This document shows positions 1 to 52,352 of a stretch of 64,000 nt of DNA, piece after piece. The notes under the pieces are model-generated. The model searched no databases and had not been told where the DNA came from. It saw only the letters and a program-made list of their open reading frames with translations. This stretch comes from an uncultured bacterium (GTDB lineage: Bacteria > Omnitrophota > Omnitrophia > Omnitrophales > Aquincolibacteriaceae), in assembly GCA_964511315.1 (NCBI GenBank), contig CAZEFF010000005.1, positions 159 through 64,158 of the forward strand, in the 5' to 3' direction. Positions within the stretch are counted from its first letter, which is position 1. Each line of letters starts with the position of its first letter. The position numbers were made by a program, and so were the translations under genes.

Positions 1-424
1 CGATCATGTGACGGCCGATCACCCGTGAAATCACAATGACGCGTTTCCCCCAGCCCATAATTTGACTTAAAGGATGATTAGAATAATAGCCATGACAAGT
101 TGTCACAAACGGTACAAGGGCCTTGCGCGCGGCAAACCAGCCGATCCACGCCGGAACACGGCTCCGGGCATGGACAATGTCGACACGTTCACGTTCAATA
201 ATTTGCGCGAGTTGCGAAACCAAGGACAATGAGAAAAGAGATTTTTTATGGACCGGAAGCAGATAATGCGTCACATTCATTTTTTGAAGTTCGGAGACAA
301 GCTCTCCCCCGGATGAGACCACCACGGTATCATGCCCCCGCTTTTTAAGCGCGCGGGCAAGATCGATAACACCCCGCTCGACGCCGCCGACATCCAAGGA
401 AGGAATAAGCTGTAATATTTTCAT
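1..424 (-). CDS. Glycosyltransferase family 1/4 (GT-B fold), N-terminal part only; the gene continues past the window start. Probably LPS core/lipid A glycosylation given its operon.
   Basis: Minus-strand ORF with ATG at 424-422 overlapping the upstream stop (ATGA). My translation begins MKILQLIPSLDVGGVERGVIDLARALKKRGHDTVVVSSGGEL, a typical GT4 N-terminal domain. It is last in the waaA-lpxK-lpxL operon. Confidence 0.7.
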   Translation of the reverse strand, partial: MKILQLIPSLDVGGVERGVIDLARALKKRGHDTVVVSSGGELVSELQKMNVTHYLLPVHKKSLFSLSLVSQLAQIIERERVDIVHARSRVPAWIGWFAARKALVPFVTTCHGYYSNHPLSQIMGWGKRVIVISRVIGRHMI

Positions 425-2376
425 AGAATTTCCTGAAGTCTTGTTCTTAAAGCAATCGTTTCGCGGTGGAGCCGTGATTGCCCTGCTGAAGAATCATTTA
501 AAGCCGCCAGCGTTTTTTCCTGAAAATCATTCAGCCCCGCGGTTCGGATAGCCGATTCCCGGGCAAGAATTTCTTTGAAGCGGCGGTGTTTTTTAGGAAG
601 TGCGGCGGAACCCAGCTCAAGAACAACGACCTTCTTACCGGAATTAACCGCCTCTGAAATCATCGAGACGCTGTCTTCCGTCACAATCAAAACATCCGCT
701 AAAGCCATCATTCCGCCCACTACTTCAGGCCGGCTGTCTTCTTTAGCAATGACAACCATTTGACATGCGGGATCCTGCGCGACGATTTCTTTTAAATACT
801 TTGAGATTTTATCCGGGGTCCGGCGTGAAGTGGTAATCACAAAGTCGCCGGCTGCAGGCGACAAGTTTTTTAGTGACGCGACAATACTTTTAACATCCTC
901 AAGGTCCATTTGAAATCTGCGGGTCGGCCCGCCTAAAAAAACCGCGAATTTCACGCGCTTAATATTTCTCATCCGTCCTTTTAATTTTTCAGCGTCTTCT
1001 TCAAGACTATTCTCTTCAACAAGACTCGGAGTTAGGATAGTGCGGAAAGCTTTATCCGGCATTAAGCCCTCATCATGCGCGGGAACAACCGCTAAATCAT
1101 AACGGAAAAAATTGAAAGGAAAACTGGGCTTCATCAAAACAATGCTTTTGGCGCGGCTGTCTTTGGCGATCATAAGATTAATCGGAACCAAACTGGACCC
1201 GGCAGAAATAACAAAATCCGTACTGCTTTCGGCAATTTTTTGCGCGCATTCAGGTTTTAGGAAAAAATGAAGCGTCCAAAGCCTCCCCTGCGCCCAAGGG
1301 AGCAAAAAAAGCGAAATTATTCCAAATAGAGCTCGGTGAAAACCGGATTTAAATTTCACCTCGATGGATTGAGTCAAGTATTCCATGCCCGGCCGGCCGT
1401 ACTGAGAATCAATCTGATGAATTTGCCCCGCCACAGCCTGTGATTGCTTCACATGGCCCGGTTTTCCATCCGAAAGTATCAAAATGCGTTTCGACCAGGA
1501 ATACTTCCAGCGTTTTGTTTCCCAAAGATATTGTTCAGGGTGTTTGCGGATAAACTTTTCAAGATTTCCCATGAACGAGCGCGCGGCTAATTCCAAATCC
1601 TGCTGTTCTTGATTCATTTTTGAAATTTCGATGGGCTCCCCAACATAAATATCATGGTGAATATCTCCGCGCCGGACAATAAAGCAAGGCAGGACAGGCG
1701 CGCCTGTTCGAAGAGCTAAATCAAACGCTCCGGTCGGCACCGTGGTTTTCCGCCCCAGAAATGGGATGATAACTCCGCCTTGTTTACCGGCATCCTGATC
1801 CGCGACAAGCCCAACAAGTTCTTTGCGGCGAAGACCTCTGAGCATATCCCGAATGCCCATTCCCCGGCGGATGGCCATCGATCCGTGACTTTCGCGCAGA
1901 CTGTTTAGAAAATCATTCAAGCGTGAATGTTTATGTCCGCGCGCGAGAACATGAATGGGCTTGCCTAAAATCCCTGAAACGATTTGAAGAAGCTCCCAAT
2001 TCCCAAAGTGTCCTGTAAGCAGGATCAATCCTTTGTCCCGGGCGATCGCCGAATAAAAACGGTCGATATTGTGGATATGAATCGTCCGTTCAATCGTTTC
2101 TTTATCGAGTACGGGAAACCGAAGCGTCTCGATAAACATCTGCCCCATATGCTCATAGTGATCACGGACGAGACGCTTGATTTTGACTTCAGAAAATCCG
2201 GCTCCAAGCGCGGCTTTCATGTCTGAATAGGCTACACGCCGGCGGTTTGAAAACAGCATCGCCGCGCGGCCCAGGAAACGCCCGATCAGCAAAGCGCGTT
2301 CCAGCGGGAGATCTCTGACAAAATCAGAGAAATTCTTTATCAGCAAAAAGCCGATAGAATCCACAAGGGATTTCAC
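421..2376 (-). CDS. Lipid A late acyltransferase (LpxL/HtrB-type lysophospholipid acyltransferase domain, about 300 aa) fused to a C-terminal ELM1/DUF1022-like domain (about 330 aa).
   Basis: 651 aa ORF. The N-terminal half has LPLAT features (LTGHFGNWE, acyltransferase box, DQD). The C-terminal half begins RILILSDGKPGHVKQSQAVAG, resembling bacterial ELM1/DUF1022 proteins. Start overlaps the lpxK stop; the downstream GT overlaps by ATGA. Confidence 0.75.
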   Translation of the reverse strand: MKSLVDSIGFLLIKNFSDFVRDLPLERALLIGRFLGRAAMLFSNRRRVAYSDMKAALGAGFSEVKIKRLVRDHYEHMGQMFIETLRFPVLDKETIERTIHIHNIDRFYSAIARDKGLILLTGHFGNWELLQIVSGILGKPIHVLARGHKHSRLNDFLNSLRESHGSMAIRRGMGIRDMLRGLRRKELVGLVADQDAGKQGGVIIPFLGRKTTVPTGAFDLALRTGAPVLPCFIVRRGDIHHDIYVGEPIEISKMNQEQQDLELAARSFMGNLEKFIRKHPEQYLWETKRWKYSWSKRILILSDGKPGHVKQSQAVAGQIHQIDSQYGRPGMEYLTQSIEVKFKSGFHRALFGIISLFLLPWAQGRLWTLHFFLKPECAQKIAESSTDFVISAGSSLVPINLMIAKDSRAKSIVLMKPSFPFNFFRYDLAVVPAHDEGLMPDKAFRTILTPSLVEENSLEEDAEKLKGRMRNIKRVKFAVFLGGPTRRFQMDLEDVKSIVASLKNLSPAAGDFVITTSRRTPDKISKYLKEIVAQDPACQMVVIAKEDSRPEVVGGMMALADVLIVTEDSVSMISEAVNSGKKVVVLELGSAALPKKHRRFKEILARESAIRTAGLNDFQEKTLAALNDSSAGQSRLHRETIALRTRLQEIL

Positions 2377-3428
2377 GAACCTGCCACCCCCAATAAATGA
2401 TGCAGCTTCTCAAGTAAAAACTCTTCGCCGGAAGAAATACGCAGACGCGTGGCAAGCACCAGAGGGTTCACTGAATTCGCGATGGCGTCAGGCGCGCGGT
2501 AATAATCTTTTTCCGTCGTAATAATTTCGTCCGCGGAAGCGGAGTGACTGACATTCTTGATTTCTTCGAGCTCTTTGCCGCTGAACACATGATGGTCCGT
2601 GAACTCAAAGTTCCGGATCGGCCGGATCTGTAAACGCGTCAGAAGCAGCTGGAAGGAACGCGGAGCGCCCACCGCTGAAAATGTGGTTACTTTTTGACGC
2701 TGCAGCCGTTCAATGGGAACACGCGCCCGCTTTTTCGCGCGGTAAAAAAACAGCGGCTCGAGATAAGAATCCAGCAGAAGCACATCCGGGGAAAATTGTC
2801 TTATCTTGGTTTTTAAGTCATTCAGCTCTTTAGGCGAAACTAAATTCGCGTGTGTAATAACAACCGCATGGGCGCGCTTTAACGCCGCCGGAGACTCCCT
2901 TAAAATTCCGCGCGGAATGATATTCCCGTTTCCAAACGGATTTAAAGCGTTCACCATCACAATCTCAAAATCACGCTGAACCGGCCAATGCTGAAACCCA
3001 TCATCTAAGATCGCGGCATCCACTTTTTGTTTACTCGCGATCTCACGCGCGACACCCGCCCGGTTTTTCCCAACTCCGATAATGGCTCTCGGCAGATGAT
3101 GCTTAAACTGTTCCACTTCATCATGATTATACCCGCGGGTTAAAACAAGCGGCGTACGCTGACGGTCGGAAATTCTTCGGGCGAGATACTCCACAAAAGG
3201 CGTCTTTCCGGTTCCGCCCCAGGTTAAATTTCCAACGCTAATAACGGGAAAAGGCAGTTTTTCAGATTTTAAAATCTTTCCTTCATAAAGCGCACGCGTA
3301 GTTCCGCTGACCGCAGAATAAACACCGCTCGCGATCCCTAGTAAAGGCTTCCAAATTTTAGTGGCAGGGCCGTCTTCAAAACCTTCCGCCAATCTGCGGA
3401 AATAACTTCTTGTCGATACCATTTTCAA
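2373..3428 (-). CDS. lpxK: Tetraacyldisaccharide 4'-kinase LpxK
   Basis: 351 aa with P-loop GNLTWGGTGKTP and LpxK-like architecture. Lies between waaA and lpxL. Start position somewhat uncertain (overlaps waaA 3' end by about 50 nt). Confidence 0.85.
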   Translation of the reverse strand: MKMVSTRSYFRRLAEGFEDGPATKIWKPLLGIASGVYSAVSGTTRALYEGKILKSEKLPFPVISVGNLTWGGTGKTPFVEYLARRISDRQRTPLVLTRGYNHDEVEQFKHHLPRAIIGVGKNRAGVAREIASKQKVDAAILDDGFQHWPVQRDFEIVMVNALNPFGNGNIIPRGILRESPAALKRAHAVVITHANLVSPKELNDLKTKIRQFSPDVLLLDSYLEPLFFYRAKKRARVPIERLQRQKVTTFSAVGAPRSFQLLLTRLQIRPIRNFEFTDHHVFSGKELEEIKNVSHSASADEIITTEKDYYRAPDAIANSVNPLVLATRLRISSGEEFLLEKLHHLLGVAGS

Positions 3429-4731
3429 TCCTTTCCTGTTTGAGCGGGTTCAAAAAATGATGAACCCATTGCAAGTGGCGGTCCGTCGCTCCCTGAGCTT
3501 CCCGCACAAGTTCCCAGGCCCTTTGGGCCATTTCAGAACTTTTTCGATCGTCTCCAAGGAGTTGACCCAGCTTCAGCGCAAGTTCTTCTTCATGCTGCAC
3601 AAGAACCGCGGCTTCCGCCCGGTCAAAACCGCCATAGATTTGTTTAAAATTAAACACGTAAGGGCCATGAAAAACAGGGCATCGGCAAGCCGCCGGCTCG
3701 ATAGGGTTTTGTCCCCCATGCGGAACCAAACTCCCGCCCACAAATGCCGCATCGGTCATGGCGTAAAGGTGTTTTAAGACACCCAGTTGATCTAAAATCA
3801 AAACGTCAAACTCGTCCCTTGCTTCTCTTTTACTTGCCTGTACAGCTTTCAAATTTTGCTTACCGCACAAAGTTAAAATGGCCCCAGACCTTTCAATATG
3901 CCTGGGAGCTAAAATCAACTTTAGATTCGCGGTCTTTTTTTTCAGCCGGCTAAAAACATTCAGCAGAATTTCTTCTTCGCCGGGATGCGTACTTCCTCCG
4001 ATGATAATTTTATCTTGAGCGGCAAAGCCCCATTCTTTCCTTAAGCGAAGAATCCCTTCGGGATCACGTTCCGTCATTTTGACATTATCAAACTTCATAT
4101 TTCCCATCACAGCAACTTTCCCGGCAGGAACCCCTAAACTTGAAAAGCGCGCGGCGTCGTCTTTACTTTGAGTCAGAACGAAAGCGATTTTACTGAATAA
4201 CGGATCAAAGATATTTTTAAACTTAGCATAACGCCCCGCGGATTTTTCTGAAAGGCGCCCATTTAAAAGCCCAACCGGAACATTTCTTCTCGAAGCCTCC
4301 TGAAGCAGATTCGGCCAAATTTCTGTCTCCATCAAAAAAAGACATACCGGCCGAATTTTTTCAAAGAAACTGCTTACAGCCGCCGTTACGTCAAAAGGGA
4401 AATAACATACCGTCACCTTTTCAGATTCAAGACTTTTGGCGATTTTTTGCCCGGTCGGAGTTACTGTCGTCAGCACGATATGAAAACCAGGCTGATCCGC
4501 CAGCAGACCCTCAATAAATTTTTTCGCGGCCATGACCTCCCCCACGCTGACCGCGTGCACCCAAAGATTCCCATTTCTTTTAAAGGCCGATAACTTTTGC
4601 GGTGAAAACCTTCCGCATCTCTCCCTCAGAAGAACCCATGGATTTTCCGCCTGAGATATTTTTACCGCGAAAATCGGCAGATAAAAAATGCCGAATAAAA
4701 TAAATGAGATGTTGTAAATAAAGCTCATCAT
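3376..4731 (-). CDS. waaA: 3-deoxy-D-manno-octulosonic acid (Kdo) transferase WaaA/KdtA
   Basis: 451 aa; N-terminal TM segment; WVHAVSVGE motif and GT30 family architecture; first gene of the lipid A late-step operon. Confidence 0.9.
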   Translation of the reverse strand: MMSFIYNISFILFGIFYLPIFAVKISQAENPWVLLRERCGRFSPQKLSAFKRNGNLWVHAVSVGEVMAAKKFIEGLLADQPGFHIVLTTVTPTGQKIAKSLESEKVTVCYFPFDVTAAVSSFFEKIRPVCLFLMETEIWPNLLQEASRRNVPVGLLNGRLSEKSAGRYAKFKNIFDPLFSKIAFVLTQSKDDAARFSSLGVPAGKVAVMGNMKFDNVKMTERDPEGILRLRKEWGFAAQDKIIIGGSTHPGEEEILLNVFSRLKKKTANLKLILAPRHIERSGAILTLCGKQNLKAVQASKREARDEFDVLILDQLGVLKHLYAMTDAAFVGGSLVPHGGQNPIEPAACRCPVFHGPYVFNFKQIYGGFDRAEAAVLVQHEEELALKLGQLLGDDRKSSEMAQRAWELVREAQGATDRHLQWVHHFLNPLKQERIENGIDKKLFPQIGGRF

Positions 4732-4745
4732 CAGTTTAATTACTG

Positions 4746-5624
4746 CTATGCATGCGGATGAGCGGAATCGTAGACTTCTTTAAGCCGCTTTGTCGTCACA
4801 TGGGTATAAATTTGTGTGGTCGATAAATTTTCGTGACCTAATAACTCCTGCACACTTCTAAGATCAGCGCCGCGGTCAAGCATATGGGTCGCAAAGGAAT
4901 GCCTCAGCATATGCGGAGAAACTTCCTTACGCAAAGCAATGCGGCGCGCGTACTTTAAAATCATTCTCCGGACACTCCGGTCTGTTAACCGTCCGCCTGA
5001 ACGGTTCATATAAAGGGCCCGTTTACCGCCGCCGTCATTTTCTCTGGGCGCTTTCATTGCCATGTATTCCTGAATCGCTTTGGCGGCGATAGCACCGACC
5101 GGAACGATTCTTTCTTTCTTACCTTTTCCCCGAACCCGAACAAGCCCTGAAAAAAAATCAACATCGTCGTGGTTGAGTCCAACTAGCTCGCTGACGCGAA
5201 GCCCGGAACTGTAAAGCGTTTCTAAAATCGCGCGGTCTCTTTTTTCTTCCCAGGTATTTTTAGAAGGGGCCTCAAGCAAATTGGTGATTTCAGTAGGTTC
5301 CAAAAATTTGGGGAGTCTTTTTTCTCTTTTAGGTGTCGCGATCGTCGCGGCGGGGTTTGTCTGCAGCACTTGCTCCCTGACAAGGTATTTAAAAAATGAG
5401 CGCAGGCAGGCTAATTTCCGGGCAATTGTGCTCTTAGAATAAGACCGGTTTTTCAAAACCGCTAAAAAAGAACGGATATCGAGGTAGGTGATATTTGAAA
5501 CGGGTTTCTTTTCTAACGTCCCGGTAAATTCACGGAGATCGATCAAATAATTTTTGACCGTATGGTCAGAAGCATTTTTTTCGTTGGAGAGAAACTGGAG
5601 AAAGCTTTGAGCGTGATTATCCAT
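4746..5624 (-). CDS. Tyrosine site-specific recombinase, XerC/XerD family
   Basis: 292 aa; catalytic-region motifs HMLRHSFATHMLDRGADLRSVQELLGHENLSTTQIYTHV with the terminal Tyr; N-terminal SAM-like domain. Stop overlaps the topA stop region (co-directional). Confidence 0.85.
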   Translation of the reverse strand: MDNHAQSFLQFLSNEKNASDHTVKNYLIDLREFTGTLEKKPVSNITYLDIRSFLAVLKNRSYSKSTIARKLACLRSFFKYLVREQVLQTNPAATIATPKREKRLPKFLEPTEITNLLEAPSKNTWEEKRDRAILETLYSSGLRVSELVGLNHDDVDFFSGLVRVRGKGKKERIVPVGAIAAKAIQEYMAMKAPRENDGGGKRALYMNRSGGRLTDRSVRRMILKYARRIALRKEVSPHMLRHSFATHMLDRGADLRSVQELLGHENLSTTQIYTHVTTKRLKEVYDSAHPHA

Positions 5625-8119
5625 TAGGGACCGAGAACTTCACGGTCCTCTTCCGAAATCTCATCATCTTTGCCCATGCCGCCCGATTCTTGATCCTTGC
5701 TCGGCAGTTTATTGGCAATAAAATCACATTTCGGATAATTTGAGCAGCCGTAAAATGTCCGCCTCTTTTTTGACATGCGTTTGACCAGATCCCCATCGCA
5801 TCCTTCTTTGGAGCACTTTACTCCCGTGGGGATTGAGCGGGTTGTCTTACATTCAGGGAAACCTGAGCAGGCCATAAATTTTCCAAAACGGCCCATTTTA
5901 ATAACCATTTGTTTGCCGCAGGCAGTGCAATTATATTCAGTCGGAATCGCTTCCTGCCGGACATTTTTCATTTCTTCGCGGGCGACTTTAACATTTTCTT
6001 CAAACGGCCCATAAAAATCTTTCAGAACACGGACCCACTGCATTTCTCCGTCTTCGATTTTATCAAGTTCATCTTCCATCAAGGCTGTGAACTGGATATC
6101 GAGAACTTTCGGAAAATGCTGCACGAGAAGATTAACCACTGTTTCCCCCAGCTCGGTCGGCATTAAAGCGCCGCCTTTGCGGGTCACATAATCGCGGTAA
6201 AGAAGCGTATAAATGGTCGGCGCGTAGGTGCTCGGGCGGCCAATCCCCTTTTCTTCAAGGATTTTAACGAGACTGGCATCATTAAAACGCGCGGGCGGCT
6301 TCGTAAAATGCTGATATCCAAAAAGCTCATTAAGCTTCAAAATTTCTCCGGGCGTGAGCTGAGGCAGTTCGCTTTCTTCGCTTTCATCTTCTTCGTCTTT
6401 TCCGTCTTTTTCTTCTTTTGGCGCTTTCGAATCTTTCGCTTCACCAAAAACAATGCCAAATCCGGGAAACAAATTACGCCGGCCGGTCGTTTTGAAAAAA
6501 TATTTTGTTCCCGCAACAATGGAAACAGAAACTTGTTCGTCAATCGCAGGCATCATCTGCGAACCTAAGAATTTACGCCAAATTAAGTCATAGAGCCTAA
6601 ATTCATCTTCATCAAGATAACTTTTAATCGATTCGGGAGTCCTTTTAACCGAGCTCGGGCGAATCGCTTCATGCGCTTCCTGCGCGCCTTTTTTAGATTT
6701 GTAAACAGGCGGTTCTTTAGGCAAATAGTTATCACCGTATTTTTGACGGATATAATCAATTGCTTCGGCCTGCGCCGTAACAGAAATATTCACGGAATCG
6801 GTTCTCATATAGGTAATCAAACCGACACTGCCTTCTTCACCGAGCTCAACACCTTCATATAATTTCTGAGCCACGCGCATTGTTTTCGCGGCGGGAAACC
6901 CGAGACGGTTATACGCCTCCTGCTGAATTTTGCTGGTTGTGTACGGAGCCTGCGGTCTGCGAGAACGCTCTTTCTTATCAACCTTGTCGACTTTAAACGG
7001 TAAGGTCAAAATTTCATCGCGGATTTTTTGAGTTTGCTCGCGGTTTTTAAGCTCTACTTTCTCTTCACCAATTCTTTCAAATTTCGCCAGGAAAATTTTT
7101 CCGGCATTCTGCGGTTTTTCGGATAACAGCTTCGCTTCTAAGGACCAGTATTCCTGCGGAACAAAGGCCCGAATTTCTAGTTCGCGGTCCACAATGAAAC
7201 GCAAAGCGACTGACTGCACGCGCCCGGCACTTAAACCCCGTCCGACTTTCCGCCAAAGTAAGGGGCTTAGTTCATAGCCAACAATACGGTCAAGAATCCG
7301 GCGCGCTTGCTGGGCATTAACAAGGTTCATTTCAATTTCACGGGGATGTTCAAACGCCCCTTTTACCGCTTCTTTGGTAATTTCATTAAATACTACGCGG
7401 GAAATTTCAGTTTCGGGATTATCTTCTCTAAAAATATGCGAGAGATGCCAGCTGATCGCTTCCCCTTCACGGTCAGGATCAGGCGCTAAATAAATGCGGG
7501 TTTTTCCTTTGGCTTGTTTGCGCAAATGCTTAACTGTTTTCGAAGCCTTGCGCATCACAATATATTGCGGTTCGAAATCTTTTTCGATTTCGACACCCAT
7601 TTTACTTCTGGGCAAATCGCGGACATGGCCCATAGAAGCTTCGACAAGATAATCGGGGCCTAAAAATTTATTAATGGTTTTAGCTTTCGCGGGAGATTCA
7701 ACAATCACCAGATTGCTCGGACCTTTAACAGAAGATTCTGAATCTGATTTTTTAGCTTTTTTAGCGCGCGGTTTTTTCGGCGCAGCTTCATCTGAAGATT
7801 CGGCTTTGGCTTTTGGCTTGCGGGCACGCGCTTTTTTCGGCGCTTCAGGCTTGGGTTCATCAGCCGGGAGGACTGCGGGCGCTTCTTCTTCCCCGCTTCC
7901 TCCGCCGACAAAATGAAGGACTTCAATGCGGTCGCCATCTTCAATCAAAACATCTTTGAAGGTTTCCCGGGAGATCACTTGTTCGTTATGTTCAACAACA
8001 ACCGTATTGGGATTGATGGAAAAATGGCTAAGAAGCTCAGAAAGAGAGGCTGCAGAGCCCAAGCTCTTTTCTTGCCCATTGAGATAGATCATGATCTGTT
8101 TTTCGTCAGTAGTCTTCAT
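5624..8119 (-). CDS. topA: DNA topoisomerase I (TopA) with an in-frame N-terminal ThiS-like beta-grasp domain plus a Lys/Ala/Pro-rich linker
   Basis: 831 aa ORF containing TOPRIM (LVIVESPAKAKTINKFLG), topo IA core and three C-terminal Zn-ribbon C4 motifs. The N-terminal about 70 aa (MIYLNGQEKSL...DGDRIEVLHFVGGG) closely resembles ThiS (B. subtilis ThiS ends IEIVHFVGGG), followed by about 60 aa of KAP-rich low complexity. An alternative internal GTG start at 7718 would give a conventional TopA. Confidence 0.85.
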   Translation of the reverse strand: MKTTDEKQIMIYLNGQEKSLGSAASLSELLSHFSINPNTVVVEHNEQVISRETFKDVLIEDGDRIEVLHFVGGGSGEEEAPAVLPADEPKPEAPKKARARKPKAKAESSDEAAPKKPRAKKAKKSDSESSVKGPSNLVIVESPAKAKTINKFLGPDYLVEASMGHVRDLPRSKMGVEIEKDFEPQYIVMRKASKTVKHLRKQAKGKTRIYLAPDPDREGEAISWHLSHIFREDNPETEISRVVFNEITKEAVKGAFEHPREIEMNLVNAQQARRILDRIVGYELSPLLWRKVGRGLSAGRVQSVALRFIVDRELEIRAFVPQEYWSLEAKLLSEKPQNAGKIFLAKFERIGEEKVELKNREQTQKIRDEILTLPFKVDKVDKKERSRRPQAPYTTSKIQQEAYNRLGFPAAKTMRVAQKLYEGVELGEEGSVGLITYMRTDSVNISVTAQAEAIDYIRQKYGDNYLPKEPPVYKSKKGAQEAHEAIRPSSVKRTPESIKSYLDEDEFRLYDLIWRKFLGSQMMPAIDEQVSVSIVAGTKYFFKTTGRRNLFPGFGIVFGEAKDSKAPKEEKDGKDEEDESEESELPQLTPGEILKLNELFGYQHFTKPPARFNDASLVKILEEKGIGRPSTYAPTIYTLLYRDYVTRKGGALMPTELGETVVNLLVQHFPKVLDIQFTALMEDELDKIEDGEMQWVRVLKDFYGPFEENVKVAREEMKNVRQEAIPTEYNCTACGKQMVIKMGRFGKFMACSGFPECKTTRSIPTGVKCSKEGCDGDLVKRMSKKRRTFYGCSNYPKCDFIANKLPSKDQESGGMGKDDEISEEDREVLGP

Positions 8120-40554: not shown

Positions 40555-42348
40555 TCAGACGTTGAATTGTAAGTCGTAGAGTTTTTTGTAGATTCCGCTT
40601 TCGCGGAGCAGTTCCTGGCTGTTTCCCTGCTGAATAATTTTTCCGCTATCCATCACAATGATCCGATCCGCGTTTTGAATCGTCGACAGTCTGTGCGCAA
40701 TCACAAAAACCGTGCGGCCTTTCATCGCGTTTTCTAAAGCCTTCTGTACTTCCCGTTCGCTTTCAGTATCTAAATGAGAAGTCGCTTCATCAAAAACAAG
40801 GATCTCGGGATCTTTTAAAAGCGCGCGGGCGATTGCGATTCGCTGACGCTGTCCGCCAGAGAGACGCAATCCCCTCTCTCCAAGATTCGTATCATATTTA
40901 TTCGGAAGCGCTTCGATAAATTGATCGGCGTAAGCAATCGCCGCTGCCGCGCGGACTTGCTCAAGACTTGCCTCAGGATTTCCATAAGCAATATTTTCGC
41001 GGATAGTCGCGTTAAAAAGAATGGTTTCCTGGGTAACGATACCGATTTTTTCCCGTAGTGACCAGACCTTAAAGCCTCGGATATCCTGCCCATTTATTTT
41101 AATGGCTCCTGAGGTCGGATCATAAAATCGCAGAATAAGATTCATGAGCGTTGTTTTGCCGGAACCGCTGGAACCCACGATTGCCAAGACCTCGCCGCGT
41201 TTAACTGTGAACGTAACTCCGTTTAAGACCTTTTTGCCTGTTTCGTAAGCGAATTCCACATCCTGATAAGTCACATCGGTGACGGGCTCTTCAAAGCTGA
41301 TCGATTCAGGCCGGTCTTGAATCGTCGGCACAGAATCAAGAATTTCAAAAATACGCGTCCCCGCGGCGATCGATTGCTGAATTGTACTGTTCACCTTGCT
41401 GATTTTTTTAAGGGGCTCATAAAAAATAAAAAGGGAGCCGACAAAAGCCACAAAACGGTCCGGCGGTAAATGTTTCAGCCCAAACCACACCGCGATCGCG
41501 GCGCCGCCCGCGCCCATCACCTCAATCAAAGGCCGCTGAACAAGCGTGATTCTTACTGTTTTCGCGAAGAAATCAAAAACATTTTTATTGATCGCTTTAA
41601 ACTTTTTGATTTCGCTGTCTTCCTGATTGAAGGCGCGCACCACATTGATGCCCGAAAGCGTTTCACCGATAAAAGCGGTAATATCCGCGGCGCGTTCCTG
41701 CATTTTTTTTGTCGTGCGACGCAAATTTTTTCCGAGCAGAACGATAGGAACCGCGACTAACGGAAAAATAATCATCGCGTAAAACGCGTAGCTCCCGCCC
41801 CAAATAAAAACCATGGGAATATTAAAAAGAATCACGAGCGGCTGTTTGACGATATCCACAACAACATCCGTGATCGCGCCTTGAATGGATCCAACGTCAT
41901 TCATGATGCGGCTTAAAAAATCACCCGTCCGGCCCCGAGAATAAAAATCATTAGAAAGATAAACTAAGTGCTGGTACAGATCGTCCCGGACTTTACGGAT
42001 TGACCGGATGCCGACACTTGCCATTTGATAATTCGAAATGTAATCAAACAGCCCGCGAAGTAAAAAGACGGTGACCATAAAAACAGGAACCCAAAAAACA
42101 GGGAAGCTGAGAGACTTTAGAAAAGGAACGGCGGGAATATTGAAAACCACCTTATCCTTATTATAGAGGCCATTAATAACCACGTAGCCGATGCCCGAAA
42201 CCAGAGAGTTGGCTATGGAATACCCAAACATACAGGCCACGGCCATCATAAGACGGCCGCGGTGAGGCTTAATGTATTCTAGTAGTCGCTTGTAGATTTC
42301 CATGGAGTTGGACACTGTAACATATCCGTTGACACCCCTCAAGGTCAT
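40555..42348 (-). CDS. ABC exporter, fused permease/ATPase, MsbA-like (lipid A/LPS flippase family)
   Basis: 597 aa; six-TM type I exporter domain plus NBD with Walker A GSSGSGKTT, signature LSGGQRQRIAIARA, Walker B ILVFDEATSHLD. Confidence 0.85.
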   Translation of the reverse strand: MTLRGVNGYVTVSNSMEIYKRLLEYIKPHRGRLMMAVACMFGYSIANSLVSGIGYVVINGLYNKDKVVFNIPAVPFLKSLSFPVFWVPVFMVTVFLLRGLFDYISNYQMASVGIRSIRKVRDDLYQHLVYLSNDFYSRGRTGDFLSRIMNDVGSIQGAITDVVVDIVKQPLVILFNIPMVFIWGGSYAFYAMIIFPLVAVPIVLLGKNLRRTTKKMQERAADITAFIGETLSGINVVRAFNQEDSEIKKFKAINKNVFDFFAKTVRITLVQRPLIEVMGAGGAAIAVWFGLKHLPPDRFVAFVGSLFIFYEPLKKISKVNSTIQQSIAAGTRIFEILDSVPTIQDRPESISFEEPVTDVTYQDVEFAYETGKKVLNGVTFTVKRGEVLAIVGSSGSGKTTLMNLILRFYDPTSGAIKINGQDIRGFKVWSLREKIGIVTQETILFNATIRENIAYGNPEASLEQVRAAAAIAYADQFIEALPNKYDTNLGERGLRLSGGQRQRIAIARALLKDPEILVFDEATSHLDTESEREVQKALENAMKGRTVFVIAHRLSTIQNADRIIVMDSGKIIQQGNSQELLRESGIYKKLYDLQFNV

Positions 42349-42404: not shown

Positions 42405-43367
42405 ATGACTAAACCTCTACGAGTTGGCGTGATTGGGATCGGGCACCTGGGAAAAGAGCATGCCCGGATCTACCGCGACCTGCCCGAAACCTCCTTGATT
42501 GGAATTTGTGACACGGACCCTTCAAAGAAGGAAAAGGCTGCTTCTTTAGGCATCCCCTTTTTCGAACGCTTTCAGGATATGATTGGGCAAGTGGACGCCG
42601 TCAGCATCGCGACTCCCACATCCACGCATCATAAAGTCGCAAAAGAATTTCTGAACGCGGGCATTCACACTTTGATTGAAAAACCCATTACCCTGAGGCT
42701 TGAAGAAGCGGATGAGCTGATCGCCCTTGCCAAGAAAAAAAATTGCGCGCTTCAAGTCGGACATATCGAACGGCACAACCCCGGTTTCAAACGGATTGAA
42801 GAAATCGCCAAGAATGTGGGCTTTCTTGAAATTCACCGGCTCGGTCCTTTCACAGGCCGCATTAATGACTGCGGTGTCGTTCTTGATCTCATGATTCATG
42901 ATCTGGATATTGTGCTCGGACTTTTAAAATCCCCTGTCGCCTCGGTTGACGCGGTCGGCATAAGCGTTCTCACTCCTTATGAAGACATCGCGAATGTGCG
43001 TCTGCGTTTTCAAAACGGCGCAGTGGCAAACATTACAGCGTCACGGTTAACGCCCGAGAAGCAAAGAAAAATCCGGATTTTTCAGGAAGACGCTTATATT
43101 TCATTAGACTACGAAGCTCAAAGCGCAAAAATCTTCCGCAAAGAGGGCTCTCAAATTCATCAGGAAGTCATCGAAATCCAAAAATCGGAACCCTTAAAAG
43201 AAGAACTTAAATTTTTTGTCTCAGGCATTCAATCCGGCGCGAGCATCGGTAAACCTGATGAAGCGGCCCGCAACGCGCTTAAAATCGCCCTCCAAATCGT
43301 TGAATCGATCCAATCTCAAAAAACGCCGAACCTGTCGGGATCGGACGTTGGGAAATTCTCTTCTTAA
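42405..43367 (+). CDS. Gfo/Idh/MocA-family NAD(P)-dependent oxidoreductase, translationally coupled to lpxB
   Basis: 320 aa; LRVGVIGIGHLGKEHA Rossmann motif and the EKP motif; its stop overlaps the lpxB ATG by 1 nt (TAATG). Confidence 0.85.
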   Translation: MTKPLRVGVIGIGHLGKEHARIYRDLPETSLIGICDTDPSKKEKAASLGIPFFERFQDMIGQVDAVSIATPTSTHHKVAKEFLNAGIHTLIEKPITLRLEEADELIALAKKKNCALQVGHIERHNPGFKRIEEIAKNVGFLEIHRLGPFTGRINDCGVVLDLMIHDLDIVLGLLKSPVASVDAVGISVLTPYEDIANVRLRFQNGAVANITASRLTPEKQRKIRIFQEDAYISLDYEAQSAKIFRKEGSQIHQEVIEIQKSEPLKEELKFFVSGIQSGASIGKPDEAARNALKIALQIVESIQSQKTPNLSGSDVGKFSS

Positions 43368-44500
43368 TGAAATTTTTCATTATTGCCTGCGAACCCTCTG
43401 GGGATTTGCATGGCGCGCACCTGATCGAAGAAATTAAAAGGCGCTCTCCAGGTTCAGAGTTCCGAGGGCTCGGCGGACCCGCGATGGCCGCGCGGAACGT
43501 TCATCTCTTGGAAGATATGACTAAGTTCTCCGCGCTTGGTCTAGGAGATGTCCTTCGGCAGTATTTAAAATACAGAGAAATCTTTTACCGCGCGTTAAAC
43601 GATGTAGAGACTTGGAAGCCTGATGCCTTAATCCTTATTGATTCGCCCGCATTCAATCTGCGCTTTGCCAAAAAAATCAAAAAACGTTTTCCCGTAATTT
43701 ATTATATTTCCCCGCAGATCTGGGCATGGGGCAGCCGAAGAATTCACACCATCAAGAAAACAGTTTCAAAAATGATTACGATTCTTCCTTTTGAAGTAGA
43801 GGTCTATAAAAAAGTTGATCTGCCGTGTGAGTTTGTCGGGCATCCGCTTCTTGATGAGATCCATTTTACGGAAACCCGGGCGACTTTGCGCGGAAAGCTT
43901 TCTTTAAAGACGGAAGAAACCGCGGTAGGGATTCTTTCGGGATCAAGAGCCAAAGAAGTAAAGCGTATTTTGCCGGACATGCTGGAATCCGCGAGACAGT
44001 TAAAGAAGTTAAAGCCCTCGTGCCGTTTCTTTTTAAGCAGGTCCGCTAATGTTCCTTCAGAAATTTATGACGGCATTCTCGCGCGTTATAAAGATTTACA
44101 GATCGAAACTCCGCAGCTAAGGATGCATGATCTGCTGCTGGCCCTCGACTTTGCTTTCATTACTTCTGGAACCGCGACTCTCGAAGCCACATTAATCGGA
44201 ACTCCCTTCTTTCTTTTTTACCGGGCCAGCTGGTCCACTTACGTTCTCGGGAAAATGCTGATTGAAGTAAAATTTCTTGGTCTTGTGAATCTTCTCGCTT
44301 CAAAAAGTGTTGTTCCGGAATTTATTCAGAATGAAATCCACCCCGAAACCATCGCCCACGAATCAAAAATCCTCCTGGAAACTCCCGCGCTTTATCAGCA
44401 AATGAAAAGTGAATTCGCGGCCGTCAAAATGAAGCTGGGTCAAAGCGGTGCAAGTCAGCGCGCGGCAGCGGCTGTGCTTAATTTCATTGAGAGAAAATAA
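43367..44500 (+). CDS. lpxB: Lipid-A-disaccharide synthase LpxB
   Basis: 377 aa; N-terminus FFIIACEPSGDLHGAHLIEEI and GT19 family architecture. Confidence 0.92.
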   Translation: MKFFIIACEPSGDLHGAHLIEEIKRRSPGSEFRGLGGPAMAARNVHLLEDMTKFSALGLGDVLRQYLKYREIFYRALNDVETWKPDALILIDSPAFNLRFAKKIKKRFPVIYYISPQIWAWGSRRIHTIKKTVSKMITILPFEVEVYKKVDLPCEFVGHPLLDEIHFTETRATLRGKLSLKTEETAVGILSGSRAKEVKRILPDMLESARQLKKLKPSCRFFLSRSANVPSEIYDGILARYKDLQIETPQLRMHDLLLALDFAFITSGTATLEATLIGTPFFLFYRASWSTYVLGKMLIEVKFLGLVNLLASKSVVPEFIQNEIHPETIAHESKILLETPALYQQMKSEFAAVKMKLGQSGASQRAAAAVLNFIERK

Positions 44501-47844: not shown

Positions 47845-49443
47845 TTAACTGGCGATACGGTATTTCTTGAGCTTATACCCCAATATCCGTTCCGTAATTC
47901 CTAGGGACTTTGAAGCTTTTCTCTGATTATTACTGGCTTGCCGCATGGCTTCTTCTATCATCTGTTTTTCGAGCGCCTCAACCGCATCCGGCAATTGCGC
48001 AGCGGCGGGAATAGAGGCCGACATGGCTTCAGGCTTTTCGGCAGCAACGACTTTGTTATTCTTTTTAACACCCGGGATTGGAAAAAGATCGGGGGTTAAA
48101 ATATCCGTCTTACAAAGCACAACTGCCCGCTCAATCGCGTTTTCGAGTTCCCGCACATTGCCCGGCCAGGAATAATTAAGAAGATACTGAATGGCTTCGT
48201 CTGAAAAGTATTTTACATTTTTCTTATTCGCGTTCGCGGCCTTCTGCAGAAAGTGATTGGCCAACGTCGGGATATCTTCATACCGCTCTTTAAGCGGCGG
48301 AAGAAATATGGGAATCACATTAAGGCGGTAATAAAGATCTTCCCGGAAATTCCCGGATTGAATCTCCGTTTCCAAATCCCGATTCGTCGCGGTAATTAAA
48401 CGGATATCCACGCGGATCGTCTGAGTTCCGCCAAGCCTTTCGAATTCTTTTTCCTGAAGCACACGCAGCAATTTCACCTGTGTACTGGCTGGAATGTCCC
48501 CGATTTCATCGAGAAAAAGGGTTCCGCCATGGGCCATTTCAAAACGCCCAATTTTAGTCGTGGCGGCTCCTGTAAAGGCTCCCTTCTCGTAACCAAAAAG
48601 CTCGCTTTCAAGAAGCGTATCTGGAAGGGCAGCGCAGGATACTTTAATGAAAGGCTTGTCCGCGCGGTCACTGGAGTAATGAATCGCGTGAGCCACCATT
48701 TCCTTTCCCGTCCCGCTTTCCCCGCGTAAAATAACCGTCGCGCTGGTTTTACTAATTTGTTCAATCGCGTCGTATACCTCAATAATACGTTTTGATTCGC
48801 CGATCATGTTCGCGGGATGAAATTTTTTCTTAAGCTCCTGTTTTAACAGGATATTTTCATTCTGAAGTTTTTCCTTCTCTTTTTCATAAAGCATATGAAT
48901 TCTGACTGTTTGAGCGACCATGGAACTGATGATCGTCAAAAGACGGATGTCTTCTTCGAACGAAATACTTTCGGAAAAAAGCCGATCGACGCTTAATGCG
49001 CCAATTGTTTTCTGGTCCAGTTTAATTGGAACGCAAATAAAAGATATATTTCCGCGCTTAATGTCTCCCCGCGCGCGCGTCCGGTTCAAAAAGAGCGGCT
49101 CGGTACCGACATTCGGCACAACAATCGGCTCTCCGGCAGCCACCACTTTGCCGGTGATTCCTTCTCCGACTCGGTAGCGCCCGCGCTCAATCTCAGACTT
49201 CGCGAGACCACGGGCCACTTCGATTTCTAATTGATTGGTTGTGCGGTCAAGCAGCGTAAGCGTCCCGCGCTCCATTCCCATCCGCTTATGAAGAATCTCC
49301 ATAATTTGAGACATCACGTATTCAAGATCGGTCGAAGAATTCATCGCTTTTGAAATTTCATAAAGCGTGGTCAGCTCATCAATTTTTCTTTGTGAGTTAG
49401 CAAGCGACTGTTGATTTGAATCTGAATTTTTCTTTAAGGTCAT
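47845..49443 (-). CDS. Sigma-54-dependent transcriptional activator with N-terminal GAF domain and C-terminal Fis-type HTH (NifA/NtrC-family enhancer-binding protein)
   Basis: 532 aa; GAF domain; AAA+ sigma-54 interaction domain with Walker A GESGTGKE and GAFTGA motif; C-terminal HTH ([19 protein letters not shown]). Confidence 0.88.
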
Positions 49444-50267
49444 AAAGACTGTCCATCCGCGACGCCGAATAAAGCGATTCCTTTGGCGTTGGCTTTGCTG
49501 ATAAATTCCTCCTGATCAATAAATAATGTTTTTCCAGCTTCAAACGCGAAGGCTTCGGCTTTCGCGTCAATCAGCTCTTTAAGCGTATTCAGTCCCACAG
49601 CGGGAACATCAAAACGCATATCTTGATTCGGCTTTGCGACCTTTACGACCGTAACTTTATTATTGCCCAAATATGCCCCGCGGCGGATTGCGTGATCGGT
49701 TCCTTCAATCGCCTCAACCGCAAGAATAGCTTTTTTCTTTACGACAACGGTTTGACCAATATCCAGACCCGCGATGGATTTTGCCATTTTAAAACCAAAA
49801 CGGATCTCCTCCATAATTTCTTTTGAGGGCTTTTTTTTGCCGAGCACGCCCGGCCCAGGGAGCGCATATTTCATTAAAAAGGTGGAGTCAAGAAGATCGA
49901 TTCCTTCGCCGTGCAAATAAGAAGCAATGCCGGCCAGCAAGGAATCATCTTTAAAATCCCTTGTCTTCATAATCACTTTTACCATTTCAAAATCAGGGCG
50001 GACGTTTTCCTGAAAAAGTCTGACTTTTTCGATCTTGCCCGCCATAATTGCTTCGTGGACACCCTCAGACTTAAAAAATTTTACCAGCTTTTTAAGCTCT
50101 CCGATTTTCGTCCATCGGAAGGAATCAGCCATTTTCTCAAGCGCCGGCTCAGCCTCTTGCTCAATTCCGCATACAGCGATCCTGTACCCCTGAGCGCGGG
50201 CTTCTTTGGCCGCGAGCACGGGAAAACGTCCGTTGCCGGCAATAATTCCGATTGTTTTATTCATCAT
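49440..50267 (-). CDS. lpxI: UDP-2,3-diacylglucosamine pyrophosphatase LpxI (DUF1009 family)
   Basis: 275 aa; N-terminus TIGIIAGNGRFPVLAAKEARAQG typical of LpxI; located directly after lpxA, as in lpxI-containing organisms; overlaps the next gene by 4 nt. Confidence 0.8.
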   Translation of the reverse strand: MMNKTIGIIAGNGRFPVLAAKEARAQGYRIAVCGIEQEAEPALEKMADSFRWTKIGELKKLVKFFKSEGVHEAIMAGKIEKVRLFQENVRPDFEMVKVIMKTRDFKDDSLLAGIASYLHGEGIDLLDSTFLMKYALPGPGVLGKKKPSKEIMEEIRFGFKMAKSIAGLDIGQTVVVKKKAILAVEAIEGTDHAIRRGAYLGNNKVTVVKVAKPNQDMRFDVPAVGLNTLKELIDAKAEAFAFEAGKTLFIDQEEFISKANAKGIALFGVADGQSL

Positions 50268-50295: not shown

Positions 50296-51063
50296 TTAGC
50301 CGCAGATACCGCGCGGAGATTCCTGCAAAAAATTAACCAGGATATCTAAAGCCGGCGTTTTGGGGAGCTCCGCTTGAATTTGAGCGATCGCGCTTTTGAG
50401 CGAAAGTCCCGAGCGGAAAATAATCTTGAATGCTTTCTTTAGCGCGGCTTTTTCTTCTTTAGAAACGCCCGCGCGGTTTAATCCAACCGAGTTCAGGCCA
50501 AATGCTTCGGCCGGATGACCATCGACCATCATGTACGGCGGAACATCCTGAACAACTTTAGAGCAGCCTCCGATAATCGCCAGATGTCCAATATGCACAA
50601 ATTGATGAACACCTGTGAGTCCGCCAATAATTGCGGCGTCGTCCACCACAACATGCCCAGCAAGAGTGGCTGAATTCGCCAGAACAGTGTTGTTTTTAAC
50701 AATGCAGTCGTGTGCCACATGGCAGTAAGCCATCAGCAAATTATCATTCCCAATTACAGTTTCTGTCCCCGGCTTGGTACCGGGATTAATCGTGACATAT
50801 TCACGAATTTTATTCCGGCTGCCGATTTTAAGATAACTAATCCCCCCTTCAAATTTTTTGTCTTGGGTACGGCTCCCAATCACAGCACCGGTAAAAATTT
50901 CATTTTCCGCACCAATAATGGTATTACCTTCAATGGTCGCGCGGGGTCCTACAATAGTCCCGGGACCGATTTTTACCGGTCCGGAGATAATCGCGTAGGG
51001 CCCCACCTGAACATCTTCAGCCAGTTCAGCGATCGGATCAACAATCGCTGTCGGATGGATCAT
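50296..51063 (-). CDS. lpxA: UDP-N-acetylglucosamine O-acyltransferase LpxA
   Basis: Start MIHPTAIVDP at 51063 (TGATG overlap with the lpxC/fabZ stop); left-handed beta-helix hexapeptide repeats; C-terminal helical domain. Confidence 0.9.
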   Translation of the reverse strand: MIHPTAIVDPIAELAEDVQVGPYAIISGPVKIGPGTIVGPRATIEGNTIIGAENEIFTGAVIGSRTQDKKFEGGISYLKIGSRNKIREYVTINPGTKPGTETVIGNDNLLMAYCHVAHDCIVKNNTVLANSATLAGHVVVDDAAIIGGLTGVHQFVHIGHLAIIGGCSKVVQDVPPYMMVDGHPAEAFGLNSVGLNRAGVSKEEKAALKKAFKIIFRSGLSLKSAIAQIQAELPKTPALDILVNFLQESPRGICG

Positions 51064-52352
51064 CAACGATCCACGACTGCGAACTTCACTTCCGCTTCGC
51101 ATACAAGCTTTTCTCCCACATAAGCGCGTCCCGAACATTGTCCGGTTTTCGCGCGGATTTTCGTGACCTCGACTTCCATGCGGAGCTCGTCGCCGGGAAG
51201 TACGGGTTGACGGAATTTCGCGAAATCAATGCTCATAAAATAAGCGATTTTGTTCCGATTTTCAGGCTTGCTGAGCATAATCACACCGCCGACTTGCGCC
51301 ATGGCCTCAATAATCAGAACCCCAGGCATCACCGGATGTCCGGGAAAGTGGCCTTGAAAAAAGTAATCATTCATAGTCACTTGTTTGAATCCGACAGCTT
51401 TGACGCCGGGTTCAAAATTCTCAATCCGGTCCACAAATAAAAATGGATAACGGTGCGGAATAATTTTTTGAATAATTTCCGCATTTAAAACAGCCGGCAG
51501 CGGAGAAGGCAGAAGATCATCTTGTTGTTGGCTCATGGCTAGTTTCCTCACAAATTCAAGATTTAAGGCATGCCCGCTTCGCGTAGCGATCACATGCCCT
51601 TTGATAAAACCGCCGACCAAAAACAGATCCCCGAGGAGATCGAGAATTTTATGGCGGCAGGCCTCATCCTCAAAACGAAGCTTGTTTTGGATAGGTTCAT
51701 TTTTTTCAAAAACGAGAGTGTTGGAAAGATTCGCGCCTTGTCCAAAACCCTGGGCTAAAAGAGCCTCGGCTTCCTGCTTCAAGCAAAAAGTCCTAGCCGG
51801 GGCCAGATCCCGTTCGAAAATTTCAGGCAGGATCGTCATGGTCAAAAACTGATCCTTCAAATCTTCATGCCGATAACTGAGCATGTAGGAAATCATCAGA
51901 TTCGGCGCGGGAAGAATGATCAAAGACTGATCACCGCGGTCAATAAAAACAGGCTTCTCCACGGTCAAATAACGCCGTACGGCTTCCTGCTCGAGCAATC
52001 CTACTTTTAAAATTGCTTCAACATACCCCGCCGAGCTTCCATCCATACCCGGAAGCTCCTCGCCGTCAACTTCCACATAAACATTATCAACACCAAGGCC
52101 GTGAAAAACGGCCATCAAGTGTTCGATCGTGCGGATTCGGCCGGCCCCAACTTTAAGGGCCGTCTGGCGCATTTCATCAGATGAAACCTGATCGGAAGCT
52201 GCTTTAACCTTAATCGAAGGGTCAAGATCTACCCTCGAAAAAACAATTCCGGCATTTGGTTCGGCGGGACAAATACGAAGCTTGGCTAGACGCCCCGTGT
52301 GAAGGCCTTGCCCTTCAAACGAAATTGGTTCGCGAAGCGTTCTTTGCTTCAT
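51063..52352 (-). CDS. Bifunctional LpxC-FabZ fusion (UDP-3-O-acyl-GlcNAc deacetylase plus 3-hydroxyacyl-ACP dehydratase)
   Basis: 429 aa; N-terminal LpxC (ISFEGQGLHTGRLAKLRICPAEPNAGIVF, HxxxD Zn site); C-terminal FabZ hot-dog (PHRYPFLFVDRI...HFPGHPVMPGVLIIEAMAQ). Confidence 0.9.
   Translation of the reverse strand: MKQRTLREPISFEGQGLHTGRLAKLRICPAEPNAGIVFSRVDLDPSIKVKAASDQVSSDEMRQTALKVGAGRIRTIEHLMAVFHGLGVDNVYVEVDGEELPGMDGSSAGYVEAILKVGLLEQEAVRRYLTVEKPVFIDRGDQSLIILPAPNLMISYMLSYRHEDLKDQFLTMTILPEIFERDLAPARTFCLKQEAEALLAQGFGQGANLSNTLVFEKNEPIQNKLRFEDEACRHKILDLLGDLFLVGGFIKGHVIATRSGHALNLEFVRKLAMSQQQDDLLPSPLPAVLNAEIIQKIIPHRYPFLFVDRIENFEPGVKAVGFKQVTMNDYFFQGHFPGHPVMPGVLIIEAMAQVGGVIMLSKPENRNKIAYFMSIDFAKFRQPVLPGDELRMEVEVTKIRAKTGQCSGRAYVGEKLVCEAEVKFAVVDR

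Follow-up and report, generated by a model that had tools for sequence, protein, structure and literature searches.

The closest described counterparts of the gene studied here are found in Acinetobacter baumannii, where GtrOC1, GtrOC14, GtrOC19 and GtrOC22 of the outer-core (OC) loci are ELM1-like proteins (PF06258) that were listed as being "with no known function in bacteria" (PMC4172580, PMC10327509). When either the ELM1-like gene A1S_2903 or the glycosyltransferase family 4 (GT4) gene lpsB is deleted in this species, a chemotype of Kdo2-lipid A results (Kdo, 3-deoxy-D-manno-oct-2-ulosonic acid), and co-expression of the two adds a third Kdo (KdoIII) together with N-acetylglucosaminuronic acid (GlcNAcA), even in E. 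coli WBB06 (VanOtterloo et al., mBio 2024, PMC10936431). The two proteins have since been renamed KdoT and GnaT (JBC 2025, PMC12856342). KdoT transfers Kdo from CMP-Kdo, has a GT-B fold and attaches KdoIII in alpha-2,5 linkage to KdoI on Kdo2-lipid IVA/A; it is catalytically active alone in vitro, prefers tetra-acylated to hexa-acylated substrate and does not act on lipid IVA, and GlcNAcA is then added by the GT4 enzyme GnaT (PMC12856342). Furthermore, a Rickettsia homologue complements the kdoT mutant, the motif SRRT is invariant in the KdoT family, and its second arginine, R180, is required for activity (PMC12856342). Single alanine mutants of D8, H13, H109 and D110 are still active (PMC12856342), so these four residues serve as markers of the family and are not proven catalytic residues. 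Here we analysed a stretch of 64,000 nt from an uncultured bacterium of the phylum Omnitrophota (contig CAZEFF010000005.1; "the window" denotes this stretch at its full length), in which an LpxL/HtrB-type late lipid A acyltransferase and an ELM1-like domain are encoded as one protein. We find that this LpxL::ELM1 fusion is probably a bifunctional late acyltransferase and KdoT-like inner-core glycosyltransferase whose two halves both use Kdo2-lipid IVA as substrate.

Both domains of the 651-aa product, which an earlier note on this DNA had described as a fusion, were recovered far above their Pfam thresholds. The acyltransferase profile PF03279 (Lip_A_acyltrans) matches residues 18-291 (E-value 1.5e-49; 169.2 bits, cut-off 22.3; spanning positions 24-294 of the 295 in the profile), and PF06258 (Mito_fiss_Elm1) matches residues 306-628 (E-value 2.5e-51; 175.1 bits, cut-off 27; spanning positions 1-292 of the 304 in the profile), with the C-terminal half falling in no other family. 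The second domain starts at residue 296, with the sequence KRILILSDGKPGH, and there is essentially no linker, as the conserved C-terminal end of the LpxL domain (W..KRWKYSW) leads directly into strand 1 of the ELM1-like domain (ILILSDG). An AlphaFold2 model of the full-length fusion reached a mean predicted local distance difference test score (pLDDT) of 90.2 and a predicted template modelling score (pTM) of 0.85. By a hydropathy scan we found no transmembrane-grade segment anywhere in the fusion protein, the maximum Kyte-Doolittle mean over 19 residues being 1.46, and the product is probably a peripheral membrane protein.

In its predicted model, at pLDDT 94, the ELM1-like domain folds as GT-B, with a cleft separating two Rossmann-like domains, so that the family and the fold assigned by the earlier note both stand, whereas its label "function unknown" is outdated, given that A. 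baumannii 2903/GtrOC1 is now KdoT. PimA and MurG were named in the structural comparison of this model, which has no close solved relative; by sequence no solved structure for the ELM1-like half was found in the PDB, and no NCBIfam model matches the domain. As a separate observation, the second-ranked PDB match of the model in Foldseek was 8b6f_A0 (E-value 1.5e-7, 12% identity, TM-score 0.35), which is chain A0 (503 aa), an accessory subunit of mitochondrial complex I from Tetrahymena. It may be merely another GT-B fold, and is curious in that the namesake of PF06258 is a plant mitochondrial protein. Plants retain a mitochondrial lipid A pathway.

For comparison with KdoT, we took the A. baumannii sequence from a chromosome fragment filed as a plasmid (L087:5827-6717), where it is the first gene of the outer-core locus (OCL) after ilvE. 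The recovered protein has 296 aa, matches PF06258 at 5.5e-60 (203.5 bits), and its numbering reproduces the published D8, H13, H109, D110, R179 and R180. In pairwise BLASTP the window domain and KdoT share 31% identity over 210 aa (E-value 2e-19), a stretch that corresponds to the C-terminal two thirds, and identity over the whole domain is 25% in the multiple alignment. In that alignment, D8, H13, H109, D110, R179 and R180 of KdoT fall on D303, H308, H434, D435, R518 and R519 of the fusion. Judged from the sequences, the similarity is one of homology, and it is too distant to prove the same specificity.

We next compared the window protein with its relatives, using 72 aligned LpxL::ELM1 sequences (the window's included) from species-level genomes, almost all of them Candidatus Omnitrophota. 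Of the SRRT motif, which lies in the donor-binding C-terminal part of the GT-B fold, S517, R518 and R519 are kept in all 72, T520 is kept in 69 and replaced by serine in the other three, D303 and H434 are again kept in 72 of 72, and H308 and D435 in 71 of 72. About 20 polar residues of the ELM1-like domain, in SRRT, the S..SE nucleotide-binding helix, HD and D..GH..Q, are invariant among homologues of 30-58% identity; they would line positions of the GT-B cleft, a pattern typical of an enzyme. The likeness to A. baumannii KdoT thus comprises PF06258, the GT-B fold, SRRT, the equivalents of D8, H13, H109 and D110, and the lack of both a signal peptide and a strongly hydrophobic transmembrane segment. 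In addition, a GT4 enzyme comes next in both cases, functionally or genetically, and the stage at which they act is that of Kdo2-lipid IVA, on the window side by analogy. The differences are of arrangement: KdoT is a free 296-aa protein in A. baumannii, whereas here the domain is the C-terminal half of LpxL (of LpxK in a sister lineage), and the partner GT4 is here adjacent and fused to a glycosyltransferase family 9 (GT9) domain, while in A. baumannii gnaT/lpsB lies unlinked. The multifunctional Kdo transferase WaaA/KdtA (glycosyltransferase family 30, GT30), by contrast, belongs to a different Pfam family and has no sequence-level relation to the ELM1-like domain; it starts Kdo addition on lipid IVA, which KdoT-type enzymes do not, and the true waaA lies two genes upstream.

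The N-terminal domain is, on its conserved residues and profile matches, an LpxL-type acyltransferase. Its closest solved relative is A. baumannii LpxM (5KN7; 5e-23), with mycobacterial PatA also similar. Its HX4E motif aligns with the H..E dyad region of LpxM, and H123 and E128 are kept in all 71 alignable fused homologues and do not vary in a second alignment. With LpxL, LpxM and LpxP (HtrB/MsbB, such as A. baumannii LpxM) it shares PF03279, HX4E, a domain of about 290 aa and a gene position after waaA and lpxK; it differs in the added 356-aa C-terminal glycosyltransferase and in an N-terminal helix that is only weakly hydrophobic. None of the NCBIfam equivalogs of LpxL, LpxM or LpxP was reached, as all 17 matching models score below their cut-offs (the best, PRK08419, at 148.5 bits against 248), and the acyl chain and its position are therefore not assignable.

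Upon searching 5.8 billion proteins for full-length relatives at E<=1e-5, we obtained 317, of which the best 120 are all two-domain proteins of about 650 aa with 43-58% identity, and the named sources of these 120 are metagenome-assembled genomes (MAGs) of Candidatus Omnitrophota/Omnitrophica. With only the C-terminal domain as query, HMMER returned 190 matches below 1e-30 among 1.84 billion cluster representatives, and most of the best 150 are 620-700 aa long with the domain at about 295-650. When one genome per species was scanned, at least 588 genomes contained a relative. The best 80 loci, annotated by phmmer seeds, nearly all read topA-xerC-waaA-lpxK-[LpxL::ELM1]-[GT4::GT9]-GT4-GT9-GT9 and onward, with kdsB (CMP-Kdo synthetase) and a PfkB-type sugar kinase often found further along; in three relatives, Pfam labels computed beforehand are in accord with this order. 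From waaA through the GT4 and GT9 genes, it holds in about 75 Omnitrophota genomes. In relatives, the next gene after the fusion encodes a GT4::GT9 protein of about 700 aa (L001 11953..14070, L003 11947..14043, L084 9065..11119; 698-705 aa in the first two), and the GT9 domains exceed the NCBIfam cut-off for heptosyltransferase II. GT9::GT9 fusions of about 680 aa are additionally present in several relatives; enzymes of the lipopolysaccharide (LPS) core are unusually often fused in Omnitrophota.

Surveying split and fused versions, we found the LpxL::ELM1 form in 72 loci including the window, and in seven further Omnitrophota genomes (L017, L020, L021, L022, L023, L025, L056) an LpxK::ELM1 protein of about 710 aa (range 681-739 aa) in its place, with no LpxL domain at this position. 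L021 is a complete chromosome (CP070837.1), and its protein matches PF02606 and PF06258 in Pfam with an intact GGTGKTP P-loop and TTSRRT. The occurrence of LpxK::ELM1 beside LpxL::ELM1 indicates that the ELM1-like domain is the constant element and the lipid A partner the changeable one; evolution has joined the KdoT-like domain to either LpxL or LpxK. A GT4 gene always follows the gene of the ELM1-like domain, whichever the partner, and in the window as in many relatives the two genes share ATGA. Furthermore, in a MAG labelled Deltaproteobacteria the ELM1-like gene stands free (355 aa), in a 17-kb locus that has no lpx gene; it overlaps by 4 nt a GT4::GT9 gene, behind which lie a GT4 gene and three GT9 genes. 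Since the free-standing form is still coupled to GT4::GT9, what recurs is a KdoT-like gene with a GT4 gene behind it, a pair that is translationally coupled even without lpx genes, which mirrors the co-dependence of KdoT and GnaT.

The gene order in the window, all on one strand, is waaA-lpxK-[lpxL::ELM1]-GT4, and the operon named in the earlier note is thus borne out by PF04413, PF02606 and GT4 families. Its account of the junctions, 1-4 nt overlaps with ATGA at both ends of the fusion gene, stands in part. The GT4 start and the fusion-gene stop do share ATGA at 421-424, whereas the lpxK stop and the fusion-gene start share GTGA at 2373-2376, still an overlap of 4 nt, and the overlap of waaA with lpxK measures about 47 nt when the ATG at 3422 is taken as the lpxK start, or 53 nt with the TTG at 3428. 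The ATG has GGAAAGGA upstream and agrees with the N-termini of relatives. Similarly, stoichiometric co-expression, claimed there for all four enzymes, is guaranteed for the two fused domains only, as overlaps suggest translational coupling and not fixed ratios.

We propose that the fusion would work as an inner-membrane-associated enzyme of LPS biosynthesis in Omnitrophota. Kdo2-lipid IVA would be made by WaaA, and the LpxL half would then place a secondary acyl chain on it. The substrate of LpxL is the acceptor form used by KdoT, Kdo2-lipid IVA, and the KdoT-like half of the same polypeptide would, by analogy with A. baumannii, add a further (third) Kdo from CMP-Kdo onto the Kdo2 unit. The translationally coupled GT4::GT9 protein would extend that residue, as GnaT/LpsB does after KdoT, and heptosyltransferase-like enzymes would extend the core. 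We infer CMP-Kdo as the donor, together with the acceptor position, the order of acylation and glycosylation and any channelling of substrate. That the two halves act on the same Kdo2-lipid A-stage intermediate, as the earlier note had suggested, gains support from the biochemistry of KdoT, the retention of the KdoT motifs, the fusion to LpxL or LpxK and the GT4 gene that comes next.

Several points weigh against assigning KdoT activity to the C-terminal half. It shares only modest identity with the characterised KdoT (25% over the full domain, 31% over the C-terminal two thirds), and the Omnitrophota domain holds an insertion of 30-45 aa near its N-terminus that is absent from KdoT. This insertion contains a hydrophobic helix, FHRALFGIISLFLLPW, and such a helix without a transmembrane-grade segment is in keeping with a peripheral membrane enzyme encountering a lipid acceptor. 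To our knowledge no LPS structure exists for any member of Omnitrophota, and a Kdo3 inner core would be putative there. Additionally, PF06258 is not mono-specific, so that membership of the family alone fixes neither donor nor acceptor: the A. baumannii OC loci hold the paralogues GtrOC14, GtrOC19 and GtrOC22, presumably for other linkages (PMC4172580, PMC10327509), and some free-standing PF06258 genes lie in non-LPS contexts. Two of the latter, L085 8001..9056 and L086 8001..9056, encode 351-aa proteins in genomes of 4-6.8 Mb among PhyH, STAS and HpcH genes; in their clade PRMY replaces the P-x-H-D motif, with no HD pair, and TTSRRT is kept. The function of this clade is probably different, and free-standing members in unrelated neighbourhoods and without the HD pair indicate that the family is functionally not uniform.

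These points feed the serious rival explanation, in which the C-terminal domain is an active PF06258 GT-B transferase on lipid A-core whose donor (a hexose, hexuronic acid, heptose or other ulosonic acid) or acceptor is unlike that of KdoT. The several PF06258 paralogues per OC locus, the identity of 25-31%, the position of the lineage-specific insertion in the acceptor-side N-domain, and the PF06258 genes that Sinorhizobium meliloti pSymB and further genomes carry in other glycan contexts or outside LPS loci all speak for it. However, all the residues examined in KdoT are conserved in the fusion, including the SRRT arginines that have been modelled against the Kdo carboxylate, and the LpxL or LpxK partners and the place directly after waaA point to the earliest inner-core step. 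A GT4 gene also comes next, as in the KdoT-GnaT pair, and kdsB lies in the cluster. On this evidence we regard a different donor or acceptor as possible, although on the whole unlikely.

It is far less probable that the ELM1-like domain is inert and serves as a scaffold or adaptor, docking GT4::GT9 and the core enzymes onto LpxL or LpxK as plant ELM1 might suggest. Plant ELM1 is an adaptor in mitochondrial fission and not a known enzyme. It has PF06258 in common with the domain studied here, and it recruits dynamin-related proteins to mitochondria, whereas the bacterial context here is LPS synthesis. An "assistive" role of the ELM1-like protein was raised as a formal possibility (VanOtterloo et al. 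2024, PMC10936431), and the interdependence of KdoT and GnaT in vivo is unexplained (PMC10936431, PMC12856342). Against a scaffold stand the activity of KdoT alone in vitro and the roughly 20 invariant polar residues of the cleft, with their enzyme-typical pattern. That the domain stands in for LpxB, the lipid A disaccharide synthase, has next to no probability: both are lipid A pathway proteins with a GT-B fold, and LpxK, which acts next after LpxB, is itself found fused to ELM1, but the window carries a canonical lpxB and the fusion has no PF02684 match. Finally, a frameshift or mis-assembly of two genes, a general possibility in MAGs and no more, can be dismissed, as many studies have yielded the ORF (open reading frame) in continuous form, in more than 120 independent protein clusters and in 72 species-level genomes, with neither a linker nor a stop codon between the halves in any, and AlphaFold2 packs the two domains together.

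Going beyond the bifunctional acyltransferase and KdoT-like enzyme, the linker-less LpxL::KdoT and LpxK::KdoT proteins and the coupled GT4::GT9 might constitute an assembly line, in which acylation and addition of the third Kdo are coupled by order or by channelling between membrane-facing sites. We advance this as a tentative and rather doubtful proposal. If true, it would give a structural reason why KdoT-type enzymes and their GT4 partners depend on each other in vivo, and the WaaA-independent "split Kdo pathway" would be ancestral and widespread well beyond Proteobacteria.

Both enzyme families are already known, and what is new is the arrangement rather than an unknown function. Of the literature searched, the JBC paper alone names both ELM1 and LpxL, and the word "fusion" is not in it (PMC12856342); it therefore seems that no earlier description exists of the LpxL::KdoT and LpxK::KdoT architectures or of the conserved link to GT4::GT9. 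KdoT was biochemically defined only in 2024-2025, and surveys of its homologues have been confined to Acinetobacter and Rickettsia. The finding corroborates and extends this very recent discovery without adding a new kind of system: across a whole uncultured phylum, the lipid A/inner-core operon has a KdoT-like gene as a constant component, and with its two enzymes tethered by nature the fusion would be a good construct for studying the structures of both. Furthermore, current database names can be improved. Those in use are "mitochondrial fission ELM1 family protein", "ELM1/GtrOC1 family putative glycosyltransferase" and "KDO2-lipid IV(A) lauroyltransferase", and the first of these, or plain "lauroyltransferase", misleads for proteins of 650 aa.

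Table 1. Coordinates of the fusion gene, its domains and motifs, and other features of the window.
Feature	Position	Strand	Details
lpxL::ELM1 fusion gene	421..2376	minus	651 aa; GTG start 2376..2374, TGA stop 423..421
N-terminal LpxL/HtrB-type late acyltransferase domain, aa 1-295	1492..2376	minus	PF03279
C-terminal ELM1/GtrOC1/KdoT-like GT-B glycosyltransferase domain (predicted), aa 296-651	424..1491	minus	PF06258
HX4E dyad of the acyltransferase, H123 FGNW E128	1993..2010	minus	homologue conservation and LpxM alignment
D303-G-K-P-G-H308 loop after strand 1 of the GT-B N-domain	1453..1470	minus	equivalent to KdoT D8..H13
H434-D435	1072..1077	minus	equivalent to KdoT H109-D110 (BLASTP alignment)
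SRRT motif S517 R518 R519 T520	817..828	minus	family signature; aligned to KdoT S178-R179-R180-T181
GT4 glycosyltransferase gene, 5' part (gene cut by the window edge)	1..424	minus	ATG 424..422; Pfam GT4 N-domain families
lpxK (tetraacyldisaccharide 4'-kinase)	2373..3422 (ATG) or ..3428 (TTG)	minus	PF02606 1.7e-66; TIGR00682 above cut-off
waaA/kdtA (Kdo transferase, GT30)	3376..4731	minus	PF04413 4.5e-62; NCBIfam PRK05749 models 1.6e-112
Topoisomerase I	5624..8119	minus	N-terminal ThiS/ubiquitin-like domain, then Lys/Ala/Pro-rich low-complexity stretch
MsbA-like ABC transporter	40555..42348	minus	divergent from the oxidoreductase gene upstream of lpxB
Gfo/Idh/MocA-family oxidoreductase	42405..43367	plus	last base is the first base of lpxB (1-nt overlap)
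lpxB, canonical	43367..44500	plus	PF02684 1.7e-92
LpxI	49440..50267		next after lpxA
lpxA	50296..51138		start overlapped by the LpxC::FabZ gene
LpxC::FabZ fusion	51063..52352	minus	429 aa; PF03331 and PF07977

The remaining features of the window concern lipid A and the outer membrane (Table 1). Skp and BamA are encoded in it alongside lpxB, LpxI, LpxA, the LpxC::FabZ fusion and the MsbA-like ABC transporter, and no LpxD was seen among the window ORFs scanned. The oxidoreductase that overlaps lpxB is possibly a UDP-GlcNAc 3-oxidase of the GnnA kind; the lipid A backbone would then be of the 2,3-diamino-2,3-dideoxyglucose (GlcN3N) type.

We also report a few observations made along the way. In S. 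meliloti 1021, a strong PF06258 gene (3.6e-76) lies at 586-587 kb of pSymB (L088 6806..7777); it occurs in 61 plasmid records, is unannotated in the gene table used, and adjoins a GT92/GT2-type glycosyltransferase gene and a PMT_2 (ArnT-like GT-C) gene, a context that suggests glycan synthesis and says nothing on Kdo. Regarding the A. baumannii sequences, the plasmid-collection records NZ_CP077849.1, NZ_CP064203.1 and NZ_CP104448.1 (3.6-4.1 Mb) are evidently chromosomes, and CP040041.1 (561 kb, "plasmid unnamed1") bears the chromosomal ilvE-OCL region. With respect to the topoisomerase I gene, the ThiS domain is a Pfam label on the L001 orthologue and is absent from the L003 orthologue, and topA-xerC lies directly upstream of waaA throughout Omnitrophota.

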